From positions 1,317,035 through 1,381,034 of the forward strand of contig CBDANJ010000008.1 in NCBI GenBank assembly GCA_965197545.1: a DNA stretch of 64,000 bases. Reading direction: 5' to 3'. The notes beneath the pieces were generated by a model. The model was not told the DNA's origin. It saw only the letters and a list, made by a program, of their open reading frames with translations, and ran no database searches. Position numbers and translations under genes: made by a program. The stretch is from Dehalococcoidia bacterium. GTDB taxonomy: Bacteria; Chloroflexota; Dehalococcoidia; Lucifugimonadales; UBA3495. Shown in pieces: positions 3,344-49,939 of the stretch. How positions within the stretch are numbered: position 1 is the stretch's first letter; each line of letters begins with the position of its first letter.

Positions 3344-3808
3344 ATGGCGAAGAGCATCAACAAGGTAGAACTCCTGGGCCGGGTCGGAAGCGACCCGGAG
3401 ATGAAGTACACGGCGTCGGGCATCGCCGTCACCCAGCTGCGCCTGGCCACCGACCGGGTGCGCAAGGGCGGCGAGTCCGAGACCGACTGGCACCAGATCG
3501 TGGTGTGGGACAAGCTGGCTGAAGCTGTCGCGCAGTACGTGGAAAAGGGGCAGAGGCTGTACGTCTCGGGCCGCCTGGCGCAGAACTCCTGGACCGGCGA
3601 CGACGGGCAGCGGCGCTACCGAACCGAGATTCACGCCCAGGAGGTGGTGTTCCTGGACTCCGCCCGCAACGGCGGCGGCAACCACACGGGCAACGGCTCT
3701 GCCAACGGGGTCAACGCCGCCGCCAACCACCAGGCCAACGCCGGAAACGCCAACGGATTCAACGCTGGCGGTGGTTACCAGCCCGGCGACGAGGACTCTC
3801 CCTTCTAA
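3344..3808 (+). CDS. ssb: single-stranded DNA-binding protein
   Basis: MAKSINKVELLGRVGSDPEMKYT...WHQIVVWDKLAE...RYRTEIHAQEVVFLD, Gly/Asn-rich linker, acidic tail DEDSPF. Confidence 0.9.
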   Translation: MAKSINKVELLGRVGSDPEMKYTASGIAVTQLRLATDRVRKGGESETDWHQIVVWDKLAEAVAQYVEKGQRLYVSGRLAQNSWTGDDGQRRYRTEIHAQEVVFLDSARNGGGNHTGNGSANGVNAAANHQANAGNANGFNAGGGYQPGDEDSPF

Positions 3809-3917: not shown

Positions 3918-4478
3918 ATGCCCAGGAAGAAGCAAGCCAAGCAAGAGGAAATGCTCCTGTCCATCCCCGAACCCGCCGCTCCCGCCACGCCGGAGGGCCA
4001 CGCCGTGCTGGAGGCCCTGCGCTCCAACCTGGCCCTGCTGGGGGAACTGGCGGCCCGCTACGAGGTCGCCTTCCAGCCGGAACGCCCCGCCGAGATGCCC
4101 ACCATCAACTGCCCGCAGGACGTTCACAACCTGCTGGGGCCGGAGATGTCCGCCCTGGCCCAGGAGCAGCTGCGGGTGCTGCTGCTCAACACCCGCAACC
4201 AGGTGCGGGGGCAGCGGGTGGTCTACATGGGCAACGTCAACTCGTCGGTGATTCGCCCCGCCGAGGTGCTGCGCGCTGCGGTCATCGAGTCCGCCCCCAG
4301 CATCATCATTTCCCACAATCACCCGTCCGGCGACCCAACCCCCAGCCCCGAGGACGTGTCCATCACCCGCGAGTTGGTGCAGGCGGGGAAGCTCCTCGGC
4401 ATCGACCTCCTGGACCACGTGGTCATCGGCGGCGACCGCTGGGTCAGCCTCAAGGAACGGAAGCTGATGGACGTTTAG
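3918..4478 (+). CDS. radC: RadC-like JAB/MPN domain protein
   Basis: JAMM motif ...IIISHNHPSGDPTPSPEDVSITRELVQAGKLLGIDLLDHVVIG. Confidence 0.85.
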   Translation: MPRKKQAKQEEMLLSIPEPAAPATPEGHAVLEALRSNLALLGELAARYEVAFQPERPAEMPTINCPQDVHNLLGPEMSALAQEQLRVLLLNTRNQVRGQRVVYMGNVNSSVIRPAEVLRAAVIESAPSIIISHNHPSGDPTPSPEDVSITRELVQAGKLLGIDLLDHVVIGGDRWVSLKERKLMDV

Positions 4479-4575
4479 CTCCATGACACCGAGACCGGCG
4501 GCGGCGCGCCGGTCCTCACGCGGGGGGTTCCCTTCCCCGCGCCCTTCCCGAATCCACACCTACAGGAGGCACTCC

Positions 4576-5256
4576 ATGATTCCCACGGAACCCGTCCAGA
4601 GCGGCGAGGACCCCGCATCGAGTGCGGGGCAGGCTCTCTACACGATAAGCGCCGGAGGCTACTCGGCCACCGCCGACGCCTTCGCCCGAGACCCCGACAC
4701 CGGCGGCCTCTGGTTCCTGTCGATGGTGGGGCCGCAGACCGCCCTCAAGGCCATCTGGGCCTCCCTGCTCAAGCAGCCGCCCGACACCGCCCACCTGATC
4801 AAGGGCGTGGAGGGCATGGCCCTCTCCGGCGGATACCAGCAGTGCCAGGTCCCGTATCACACCGTCGGCACCTGGACCACCCGCATCGTGCGGCTGCCCG
4901 TAAGCCGGGGCTGGCACGCCCTCGTTTACACCCGGCTGGCGGAGTTCAGCTTCGAGCGGGACGACTTCCTGCTGCTGGCCCAAGACCAGGCCGACGCGCC
5001 GGGGCTGCACCACCGCTTCCTGGACCGGCGCGGCCCCCTGCCCCTGCACCGCTCCTGGCGGGACTGGCTCTGGCGAAGGGGGTTGGACACCGGGGAGACC
5101 GTCCCCCTGGAGTCCGCCGGGCTCCTGGCCTACACCTGCAACCCCAGGGGCGAGGAACTGAAGGCCGACCTGTCGGCGGCGGTGGCGGCGGGGACGCTGA
5201 CCCTCAATGAACCGGAACCCGAAACCGATGAAACGGAGGAAGACAACGATGGATAG
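4576..5256 (+). CDS. hypothetical protein (carries a 24-nt micro-insertion at 4612-4635)
   Basis: AGGAGG 4564-4569 then ATG 4576; no family recognised. Confidence 0.5.
   Translation: MIPTEPVQSGEDPASSAGQALYTISAGGYSATADAFARDPDTGGLWFLSMVGPQTALKAIWASLLKQPPDTAHLIKGVEGMALSGGYQQCQVPYHTVGTWTTRIVRLPVSRGWHALVYTRLAEFSFERDDFLLLAQDQADAPGLHHRFLDRRGPLPLHRSWRDWLWRRGLDTGETVPLESAGLLAYTCNPRGEELKADLSAAVAAGTLTLNEPEPETDETEEDNDG
4612..4635 (-). repeat. AGCCTGCCC-hairpin micro-insertion, copy 5 (24 nt, in frame)
   Basis: Minus strand reads AG|AGCCTGCCCCGCACTCGATGCGGG|GTC; stem CCCCGCA/TGCGGGG. Confidence 0.7.
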
Positions 5257-16389: not shown

Positions 16390-18202
16390 CTAGAAACTGG
16401 GCCGGAAAGTCCTGGTTGGGTAGGGGAATTTGGGCAGTAAAGCCGATGTGAGCAGAATCACGGACCACAGTTGTCCGAGCCGGACCTCGCAGAAATTGGC
16501 CGCAGCATGGGCGACAACAAAGGGGACAATATTGAAGACGACGCTGCGGCCTGTTGCGCCGCCGCCGGTACGGCCCGACCACCCGAGTTTCCCGGCCGCC
16601 AGGGTCAGGTTGGCTACTGTGGCAGCCAGATACAGCTGGAACCTGGTCTTGACCCTGCCGAAATATCGGGACTGGCGAATGCCCAACTGGACCAGTCGGG
16701 CCAACCGGTGTTCCACCACCACCCGGCGCACTCGATATTCGTCATAGTGAGTGCTTTGCTGCAACGCTCGGGCCTGCTGCAGCAGGGCTTCCTGGGGATG
16801 GAGCAGCACCCGCCGCCCCCTGCTCCCCTTGGCTGCGATGCACTGGGACCGCAGTGGACATGTCCGACATTCGGCCCCGTCGAACTGGAAGGCCTGCAAG
16901 CGGTGGACCCGCCCCGTGCGACCCGTCCGCTTTCCCGCCGGCACGATGGTGTGGGTAACCTGTCCCGCCGGACAGGTGCAACTGCCCGCGGCCAGGTCGA
17001 TGACAAAGTCATCCTTGGGAAAGTGCTTCCGGTCGGGCCTTCCCGGCACTCTGGCCACCAAACAGCGTCCCGCATCGGCGAAGGCCTGCCTGGTATCGCC
17101 GTCCCCATAAGCGGCATCGCCCATGGCTTCCTCCACCGGCACACCGGTGTTGGCCTCGCTCTGCTCCACCAATTCCAGCGCCCCCAGGTTGTCCGGAGCG
17201 TTGCCGGGCAATACCTCCACCGCGGTGATCAGCTGGGAGTCGGTGTCCACCACAATCGCCGCCTTGTGGCCGTCAAACCGTCTACTGCTGCTCTTGCGGC
17301 CGTGGCGCATCTCCGGGTCATGCACCGACATCATCCGGTCCCGGCTCACCCCGTCCTTGAGATTCACTCCGTCATCGGCCCGCTCCACGTCCTGGAGCAG
17401 CAACTGCCCCAGCAGTTCCGCTGCGGCCACTATCTGCTGCCGCTCAGCGCTGTCATCCCCCAACTCCCCCTGCGCCCGCCGCGACAACTCCAGCAACCGG
17501 TCCGCGTCAGCTACTATCAAGGACAGCAGCGCCGTCCGGTCCCGTTTGTTGCTCCAGTCGATGGCGGCCTCGCCCTTGATGCTGGAGGCAAGGTACCGCC
17601 CATATCCCCGGGCCTTGGCCCATTTCCCGACGCTGATTCCCTCAACCTGCGACAGCGCCCGCAGCAGTTTGACGATCCCGTCCGCCAACAGGTTGTAGGT
17701 GTCCTTCACCGCGCCCCGCCCCAGGATGTTGGTCGTGTCCAATGCCACCCGCATCCCGCGCCCTTTCAGATACCCCGACTCCCGGGCCAGTCTCAGACTG
17801 GACTCGAACACCTCCCGCACCTTGCCGTGCAGGATCAGCTGGGCGCGGAACACCTGCAGCGTGCTCTTGGCGAAGGGCCGGTCTTCCGCCTCAATTCCCA
17901 ACGCCACCCCCGGTCGTGGCCGGGGGCAGGCTCTTCCAGCGGAGGTCAAAGTCGGCCCGGGCCTTGGCCTCGGCGTCGCTCACCTTGTCGTGGGACTGCA
18001 ACAGCAGCGCCGTCGCCAGCAGGCTGGGCGGCACGCTGTCCCGGCCGTTGTCGGGGCAGTAGAACTCGGCGAAATCCGCGTCTCGGAACAGCCGGCCCCG
18101 CAGCGACGCCAGAAGACCGTAGAAGCTTTCCCGCCCCACATGGTCCAGATACAACCGATCCGCTTCCCAGAACCCTCTCTGGTCCGAACGCTCTCCCAGC
18201 AT
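16390..18202 (-). pseudogene. IS1182-family transposase, frame broken only by a 25-nt micro-insertion
   Basis: N-terminal part ...SVPPSLLATALLLQSHDKVSDAEAKARADFDLRWK then 25 nt (17908-17932) then VALGIEAEDRPFAKSTLQVFRAQL...; CTCPAGQ...CRTCPLRSQC block; stop lies in the IR. Confidence 0.8.
17908..17932 (-). repeat. AGCCTGCCC-hairpin micro-insertion, copy 1 (25 nt)
   Basis: Minus strand: ..TGGAAG|AGCCTGCCCCCGGCCACGACCGGGG|GTGGCG..; stem CCCCCGG/CCGGGGG. Confidence 0.8.
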
Positions 18203-49247: not shown

Positions 49248-49270
49248 CCCCGCTTTCGCGAGGGCAGGCT
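49248..49270 (-). repeat. AGCCTGCCC-hairpin micro-insertion, copy 3 (23 nt, GAAA loop)
   Basis: Minus strand: ..GCCAAG|AGCCTGCCCTCGCGAAAGCGGGG|GTGCGC.. Confidence 0.8.
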
Positions 49271-49318: not shown

Positions 49319-49343
49319 CCCCGATCGCCGTCGAGGGCAGGCT
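49319..49343 (-). repeat. AGCCTGCCC-hairpin micro-insertion, copy 2 (25 nt, imperfect stem)
   Basis: Minus strand: ..GCGAAG|AGCCTGCCCTCGACGGCGATCGGGG|GTGGAG.. Confidence 0.8.
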
Positions 49344-49916: not shown

Positions 49917-49939
49917 AGCCTGCCCCCGTGAAAACGGGG
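49917..49939 (+). repeat. AGCCTGCCC-hairpin micro-insertion, copy 4 (23 nt, GAAA loop, antisense to the gene)
   Basis: Plus strand: ..CAGCAG|AGCCTGCCCCCGTGAAAACGGGG|GTCCTC.. Confidence 0.8.

Follow-up and report, generated by a model that had tools for sequence, protein, structure and literature searches.

A very small REP-like hairpin element, probably mobile, lies in frame within a conjugative-element gene of a Dehalococcoidia bacterium

A stretch of 64,000 nucleotides (nt) from the Dehalococcoidia bacterium assembly GCA_965197545.1 (contig CBDANJ010000008.1, positions 1,317,035 to 1,381,034), hereafter the window, was analysed. At 4576-5256 it carries an open reading frame (ORF) which, judged by its neighbours, belongs to an integrative and conjugative element (ICE), and 24 nt of this ORF, at 4612-4635, form a tagged hairpin. 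We conclude with good confidence that these 24 nt are a copy of a very small mobile DNA element, similar to the repetitive extragenic palindromic (REP) sequences, which was inserted in the ICE gene and tolerated there. The coordinates of the features are listed in Table 1. In the following, G000 is the genome of the organism itself, and L, P and G codes stand for homologous loci, homologous proteins and related genomes, respectively.

Table 1. Coordinates of the element, its host gene, neighbouring genes and sister copies in the window
Feature	Coordinates	Strand	Remarks
SSB gene	3344..3808	+	Based on the ORF sequence and on PF00436 on syntenic genes of homologous loci
RadC-like JAB gene	3918..4478	+	Directly upstream of the host gene
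Shine-Dalgarno AGGAGG	4564..4569	+	6 nt before ATG 4576
Host gene	4576..5256	+	226 aa, conserved; conjugative-element module (ssb - radC - host gene - ... - DUF6094 methyltransferase)
Left flank GAGGAC	4606..4611	+	Contiguous with the right flank in the empty orthologue L004
24-nt micro-element	4612..4635	-	AGCCTG tag and CCCCGCA CTCGA TGCGGG; + strand reading PASSAGQA
Right flank CTCTAC	4636..4641	+	Leu-Tyr, where the first beta-strand begins
Sister copy	17908..17932	-	25 nt, 6-nt loop; frame-breaking, in a transposase gene
Sister copy	49248..49270	-	23 nt, GAAA loop; in an IS5-type transposase gene
Sister copy	49319..49343	-	25 nt; in the IS5-type gene that holds the 49248-49270 copy
Sister copy	49917..49939	+	23 nt; in the IS5-type gene with the 49248-49270 copy; right flank GTCCTC

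The plus strand at 4606-4641 reads GAGGAC, CCCGCATCGAGTGCGGGGCAGGCT, CTCTAC, and the 24-mer occurs once in the window, where a shuffled sequence would be expected to hold none. In the orientation of the element the locus reads GTAGAG-AGCCTGCCCCGCACTCGATGCGGG-GTCCTC, with a hairpin of 7 bp (stem CCCCGCA/TGCGGGG), a loop of 5 nt (CTCGA) and a fold of -9.1 kcal/mol as single-stranded DNA (ssDNA); the seventh stem pair takes its G from the target, at 4611 (plus-strand C). The flanks in this orientation are the target GTAGAG and then GTCCTC, an xAG^G site (the caret marks the insertion point), and the copy is antisense to the gene. The insert starts 36 nt past the A of ATG 4576 and is therefore codon-aligned, the insertion point being the junction of codon 12 (GAC) and codon 13 (CTC). 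That the element is inside the coding region follows from the Shine-Dalgarno sequence, which fixes the start at ATG 4576; this start is common to more than 100 homologues, which open MIPTEP... or MLATH.... An earlier note on this DNA, made from its letters, had reported the sequence, its reverse-complement relation to a family motif, the stem, and an addition of PASSAGQA without a break of frame. All of these hold: the eight residues are codons 13-20 of the open ORF. The insert is presumably translated, and the predicted tryptic N-terminal peptide of the filled host protein is (M)IPTEPVQSGEDPASSAGQALYTISAGGYSATADAFAR. As with insertions of the Rickettsia palindromic element (RPE) type, its length is a multiple of three, it carries no stop codon, and the host ORF is intact and conserved. 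A search of the locus against Rfam returned a sub-threshold match to CRISPR-DR20 only, at 4489-4524 in the spacer between radC and the ORF (17.9 bits versus a gathering score of 42, E = 0.67), which was taken as a chance match.

The borders of the insert are evident from the closest loci. The empty orthologue L004 (91% amino acid identity) reads GAACCCGTCCAGAGCGGCGAGGAC, then CTCTAC; the 24 nt are missing, leaving a seamless GAGGAC^CTCTAC junction, and its flanks are identical to the window over 24 nt upstream and 6 nt downstream of the junction. In L003 (97% identity) the filled site is identical to that of the window.

The motif AGCCTGCCC followed by a hairpin occurs hundreds of times in the genome. 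Under a stricter definition 346 copies were counted, 143 of 24 nt, 101 of 23 nt and 100 of 25 nt, and this census recovered all five copies of the window, among which 4612-4635 is the sole one of 24 nt. What the earlier note called the fifth copy is thus the fifth within the window and, in the genome, one of hundreds. The tag AGCCTG is 6 nt long, unpaired and nearly invariant: it was found in 340 of about 400 occurrences of the hairpin core, AGCTTG and GGCCTG being variants. Stem pairs 1-4 are C:G (pair 4 at times T·G), and pairs 5-7 are Watson-Crick in 86-94% of copies with up to four pair types, that is, they covary. A 4-nt loop (GAAA or GAAG) gives an insert of 23 nt, a 5-nt loop (CTNGA) one of 24 nt, and a 6-nt loop (CYNCGA) one of 25 nt; loop length alone therefore determines whether a reading frame is kept or broken, and only the 5-nt-loop class preserves the frame. 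Occasional adjacent pairs were also noticed, along with a few 'double-headed' variants, AGCCTG-hairpin-CAGGCT. In the double-headed variants (G000 C7:939466, C7:989763, C8:788049 and C8:1291771) the palindrome runs through the tag; they resemble products of quasipalindrome correction, a process that could also produce compensated stems in the absence of selection.

Each copy with its flanks was queried by BLAST against the genome for empty paralogous sites. Dozens of filled/empty pairs were obtained, all with a clean gap of exactly 23, 24 or 25 nt and without target duplication. The genome-wide census called for in the earlier note yielded about 340 copies. With a left flank that ends in A, T or C, the borders can be placed without ambiguity, and the insert consists of AGCCTG and the hairpin minus its final G, a base that is part of the target and closes the stem. 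Among 167 distinct contexts the target logo is C (.57), A (.84), G (.63) and, after the insertion point, G (1.0). Insertion without target duplication, 3' of a short specific sequence (C-A-G/A^G), is as in the single-strand IS200/IS605 systems. Terminal inverted repeats and target duplication, which mark miniature inverted-repeat transposable elements (MITEs), are both lacking, the tag being one-sided and the ends asymmetric. Two large contigs contain 63,395 CAGG sites, about 200 of which are occupied. The flank GTCCTC is shared with the IS5 copy at 49917-49939, as had been noticed before; it was found in 3 of 215 distinct contexts and was dismissed as an extended target, this number pointing to chance or a weak preference. 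One repeat unit, present in more than 20 copies, contains the palindromes ATTCCCGCGCAG^GCGGGAAT and ATTCCGGGTCAA^GCCCGGAAT at a distance of about 92 nt, with a 24-nt element in the loop of each (for example G000 C7:303905/303997 and C8:2409158/2409250); empty versions of it exist.

To call host genes, all copies were removed in silico and a simple codon model was applied, and the calls are accordingly crude. On this basis 180 of 341 copies lie in restored ORFs (90 sense and 90 antisense) and 161 between ORFs. The 110 host ORFs fall into 21 clusters, nearly all transposase-like by sequence, and Pfam found DDE-type or UPF0236 domains in all five clusters scanned. In these multi-copy, mostly transposase hosts the 23-nt and 25-nt classes make up about 80% of the copies. 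The claim that the element is not restricted to genes of insertion sequences (IS) was borne out by three hosts in the genome that are not transposases: the 4576-5256 gene, a 531-amino-acid membrane protein and a 200-amino-acid secreted protein. All three come from copies of one conjugative-element family, and each holds 24-nt antisense copies in frame. This pattern, of few cases (n = 3), fits survival of the 8-codon class alone in genes that matter.

Two paralogues of the membrane protein carry their copies at G000 C8:1308083-1308106 and C8:1406477-1406500, in frame at phase 2 (within a codon) and reading EKKP^PHQARGRL^WYKLL, and these two hold different element variants at the same site. Two paralogues of the secreted protein carry theirs at G000 C8:1401856-1401879 and C8:1169396-1169419 (EYPA^PVSSTGQA^LDEQP), while a further paralogue, some 4 kb before the window, showed none. 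A decayed 24-nt in-frame copy, LTPVSGTGQALGQ, was found in a transposase (cleaned ORF 1492190-1493354 on G000 C7, host cluster 4, of ISAs1-type look by sequence); the census undercounts old copies, since the DNA pattern missed this one.

All five copies of the window were said to fall exactly between codons, and all are at phase 0 in the crude gene calls. Among distinct insertions genome-wide, 37 of the 47 in sense orientation and 39 of the 58 in antisense are at phase 0. Yet a preference for the codons CAG (Gln) and CTG (Leu) already places 57% (sense) and 76% (antisense) of all in-gene CAG^G sites at this phase. The placement between codons follows from the CAG^G target and codon usage, which puts the codon-usage explanation offered earlier in a sharper form.

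Eighty loci of relatives were fetched from reference genomes, almost all of them metagenome-assembled genomes (MAGs) of Dehalococcoidia/Chloroflexota, and the records of many point to sponge symbionts. Among 111 homologues with a usable core, 47 are filled, with a P[AV]SS[AT]GQA-type octapeptide right before L-Y/F-T-I-S-A-G-G, and 64 have none. Both states thus exist, with L004 as an exact empty site, and the filled homologues are intact, in agreement with the persistence in frame that had been proposed. The outcome named beforehand as speaking against an insertion, a segment universal among homologues and of unrelated nucleotide sequence, did not occur; the filled homologues carry the same nucleotide motif. 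On an unrooted tree, built by a quick method with the N-terminal tail excluded, the minimum is 20 state changes, versus 33-40 with shuffled labels, and 26 if the filled state is split into the GCA/TGC ('PASSAGQA') and GTA/TAC ('PVSSTGQA') variants. Well-supported sister pairs of opposite state are P0027 versus P0029, and P0102 versus P0038 and P0054.

The tail of these homologues holds the element in many forms. A perfect GTA/TAC copy occupies the same junction in L009 (72% amino acid identity), and decayed copies were found in L027 and L073/L074. In L068 a copy identical at 23 of 24 positions lies two codons upstream, L085 has two copies in tandem, and L084 has a forward copy after His5 (read LPRTGYG) together with a reverse copy with a decayed tag. 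Copies in homologues of 68-74% identity match the window copy at 18-23 of 24 positions, while synonymous third positions of the genes are 45-59% identical; most copies must therefore postdate the genes, or have been homogenised with other members of the element family. Members of the gene family conserve the D^L junction (GAC^CTN, or NAG^GTC when read from the opposite strand), which so offers a standing target. Judged from these alignments, it is evidently a recurrent landing site whose state changed many times; the individual changes may have been gains or seamless losses. This is the clearest evidence so far that one codon junction can be hit repeatedly and that the 5-nt-loop subclass can persist inside working genes; equally clear is the restriction of the three ICE genes to 24-nt copies, which a length filter through selection would predict.

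The neighbours of the host gene, here and at related loci, include a DnaG-type primase, a Rad52/22 annealing protein, SSB, RadC and a DUF6094 methyltransferase, with a weak TrbL/VirB6 match upstream, and the region is read as the establishment region of a conjugative element. Where the gene had been labelled phage/ICE, the neighbours favour the ICE, and a phage origin is less likely. The Rad52/22-family single-strand annealing protein and the DnaG-type primase (CHC2 zinc finger and Toprim) lie at about 340-1240 of the window and just upstream of the window start, and the weak TrbL/VirB6 match lies further upstream of this primase/Rad52 region. Searches with the host protein gave neither a Pfam family nor a relative in IMG/VR, nor any match among PDB folds at E ≤ 0.001. 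Its AlphaFold model is mediocre (mean predicted local distance difference test score, pLDDT, 66). Residues 1-19 have a pLDDT of 34-51 and no secondary structure, and the first beta-strand starts from about residue 20-21, just past the insert; the N-terminal tail (residues 1-19) is predicted to be disordered.

Distribution of the element is uneven even among close relatives. Seven genomes of one genus hold 81, 67, 8, 2, 1, 0 and 0 copies of the exact 25-mer of the main subfamily (the control, a reversed pattern, gave 0), and in seven other genera of the order it occurs 1-13 times. A looser family pattern, which counts overlapping matches and so overstates copy number (control 0), gave 158 matches in G001, 11 in G035, 7 in G445, 1 in G003 and 0 in G006. 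The GCA/TGC variant of the window locus is a single copy in its own genome, and the exact variant was absent from 400 sampled genomes of the phylum; by the looser pattern, GCA/TGC variants are dispersed on other contigs of G445 and G035, mostly within a GGGAGAGGG...^GGTGAGGG repeat. The main-subfamily 25-mer was not found in four MAGs labelled as other phyla that carry the host gene. Three IMG/VR contigs, all without taxonomy, have exact element matches. One of them, the viral contig L093 (IMGVR_UViG_3300015373_000019), holds its exact copy at 3555-3579 in GATCAG^GTCGTC; in a putative frame of 143 codons this reads HLDD^PVSSTGQA^LIER, a junction of the D^L type as at the window locus.

Gain rather than loss of the 24 nt is preferred because the motif with its hairpin occurs hundreds of times, with clean filled/empty paralogue pairs. 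If instead the 24 nt were ancestral to the gene, and homologues without them were deletions, the presence of the segment in many homologues at about 70% identity would be accounted for, and an unrooted tree cannot separate gains from losses. However, the same tag and hairpin recur at unrelated loci by the hundred, in transposase genes and in intergenic palindromes, and every such locus has its own empty paralogue; the direct repeat in the flanks is at most 1 nt, which makes so precise a slippage deletion unlikely; L068 holds the element at another codon; neutral sites in the same genes are far less conserved than the element; and the element occurs in genomes without the host gene, against a family derived from that gene. 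We regard an ancestral segment as hardly credible. There is a small chance that the insert was kept for use, either as a 5'-proximal mRNA or ssDNA structure that would tune early leading-region expression after conjugative entry, or as a functional N-terminal peptide. Its hairpin is 36 nt past the start codon, it is more conserved than synonymous sites, and the gene adjoins ssb and radC, which is typical of the region entering the recipient as single-stranded DNA. Recent arrival from a homogeneous family, however, would account for the conservation just as well; the insert is absent from 64 of the 111 homologues, including the closest relatives P0003, P0020 and P0022; decayed copies are common (L027, L073, L084); and the opposite-orientation and shifted copies in the tail fit tolerance, not function.

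For the movement of the element, an ordinary REP or REPIN (a hairpin-forming REP doublet) mobilised by a REP-associated tyrosine transposase (RAYT, a Y1 transposase of the histidine-hydrophobic-histidine, HUH, type) comes to mind, for the unpaired tag, the short GC-rich hairpin and the insertion in palindrome loops match the tagged REPs described in PMC3733652. We nevertheless consider this very improbable. The tag is AGCCTG, neither GTAG nor CGTC; the copies are not mainly extragenic, about half being inside ORFs; and no RAYT gene is flanked by the repeats. The sole Y1_Tnp (PF01797) gene of the genome is an IS200/IS605-type tnpA (G000 C5:32506-32865, minus strand) on a contig with zero copies of the element, and PF01797 is absent from the element-rich genomes G001, G002, G015 and G024. 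The link to RAYT/Y1 was rejected after the PF01797 search of the genome and 40 relatives gave no association with the element. Contig C5 is 69.7 kb with a slightly lower GC content of 58.7%, and it may be a plasmid or derive from another organism, contamination of the assembly being estimated at 9%. Copying by replication template switching or microhomology-mediated repair, with no dedicated enzyme, appears unlikely as well, if less so than movement by a RAYT. The junctions share 1-3 nt with typical donor flanks (CAG on the left, G on the right), the double-headed variants resemble quasipalindrome correction, and no candidate transposase was found; yet the borders are exact in all pairs examined, without extra donor flank or a series of 5'- or 3'-truncated copies, the copy number varies from 0 to about 160 among species of one genus, which suggests a factor that is present or absent, and only about 200 of the 63,395 CAGG sites are occupied.

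Under the reading of a mobile element that was inserted and tolerated, the copy landed antisense in GTAGAG^GTCCTC without target duplication. It may have survived there by virtue of a 5-nt loop, which makes 24 nt or exactly 8 codons, of a reading frame without a stop codon, and of a site in the disordered N-terminal tail right before the first beta-strand. As for movement, a trans-acting enzyme might recognise the tag and hairpin on single-stranded or extruded DNA and cut and rejoin seamlessly in the HUH-type 'peel and paste' manner, without being a Y1/RAYT; the likeness to HUH systems is drawn because of the seamless borders, the fixed short target and the single hairpin with a one-sided tag. 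If such an enzyme works on DNA that is extruded or single-stranded, this would account for the genic copies of this genome: those in recognisable genes are confined to insertion sequences and conjugative elements, both of which go through single-stranded stages. We tentatively propose that AGCCTG-tagged hairpins may be a new class of smallest mobile DNA, moved in and out by a non-RAYT enzyme, with the 24-nt class as an 8-codon cassette that rebuilds the tail of an ICE protein.

Several points weigh against all or part of this reading. The mechanism is read from the anatomy of the element, no enzyme having been found, and translation of the PASSAGQA insert is read from the open frame. Copies are near even by strand (116/112 on C8 and 53/48 on C7), with a flat GC skew on which no origin or terminus was placed. 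The CCTG of the tag is complementary to the target CAGG, but beyond this complementarity nothing supports a guide-target pairing: tag variants do not covary with the flanks, and 12 copies with the AGCTTG tag still follow CAG. Palindrome covariation could arise from template-switch quasipalindrome correction without selection and is no proof of a functional hairpin. About one fifth of the contexts (20%) lie in the loop of an inverted repeat of at least 7 bp, versus 0.7% of random CAGG sites; paralogous repeat families, ATTCCCGCGCAG^GCGGGAAT among them, exaggerate this preference. With 46 of 108 inner branches unsupported, the minimum of 20 state changes at the homologue junction may be inflated by a weak tree, and recombination between ICE variants could mimic some of them.

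The element family is apparently undescribed. In literature text the string AGCCTGCCCC was found only in unrelated primer lists, and AGCCTG is not among the tags listed by Di Nocera, De Gregorio & Rocco 2013 (PMC3733652). According to that study, REPs occur inside ORFs and within small palindromes, the CGTC class is without a transposase, and RPE-4 and RPE-6 are equated with CGTC REPs (PMC3733652). The present element shares with tagged REPs and REPINs a GC-rich stem-loop of 20-40 nt with a short conserved unpaired tag at one end (PMC3733652; PMC3116915). Further likenesses (PMC3733652) are many sequence types with compensated stems, a location inside other small palindromes, occasional copies inside ORFs that add amino acids, and a class (CGTC) also without a dedicated transposase. 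In contrast to those REPs, it has an AGCCTG tag and no linked RAYT, about half of its copies are in ORFs, mostly transposase genes, and its exact borders, CAG^G target and lack of duplication come from filled/empty pairs, border evidence of a kind not found in the parts of PMC3733652 that were searched.

Other known systems resemble the element in part. IS200/IS605 'peel and paste' elements and their palindrome-associated transposable element (PATE) derivatives likewise show no target duplication, seamless borders, insertion 3' of a short specific motif, a hairpin beside a short single-stranded recognition sequence, and asymmetric ends, but they need two different hairpin ends and a Y1 TnpA, whereas here there is one hairpin and no Y1 gene tracks the element. 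RPEs, reportedly described by Ogata et al. in 2000, are likewise palindromic repeats in frame within functional protein genes, through which selfish DNA becomes a peptide segment. RPEs belong to an AT-rich obligate intracellular alphaproteobacterium, and RPE-1 is about 100-150 nt long. They are set apart by their described tag and their size; the present unit has 24 nt, its setting is a GC-rich mobilome in Chloroflexota, and one codon junction has received it again and again, in either orientation and also as tandem copies. Cyanobacterial small dispersed repeats (SDRs) are said by Elhai et al. (2008, Genome Res 18:1484) to be 21-27 nt long and to lie mainly in intergenic or repeat contexts. 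The present element agrees with them in size and, by the filled/empty evidence, in insertion into otherwise conserved sequence. SDRs are also mobile-looking, some form hairpins, they are nested in other repeats and have no known enzyme; they differ in having unrelated sequences and in belonging to another phylum.

The locus amounts to a natural experiment, in which the empty and the filled site are both known exactly and one codon junction has been hit repeatedly. It indicates that elements of 23-25 nt really move, and that loop length decides between killing a gene and merely decorating it. Selection would then filter the subclasses by place, all three lengths being found in transposase genes and 24 nt only in the three ICE genes. 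For annotation, PASSAGQA, PVSSTGQA and LPRTGYG in Chloroflexota proteins are to be taken as signatures of the element and not as conserved motifs. Eight-residue selfish segments appear to accumulate in the disordered tail of the host protein, as with Rickettsia RPEs on a much smaller scale; if true, this would be a bacterial case of the ongoing birth of protein segments from selfish DNA.

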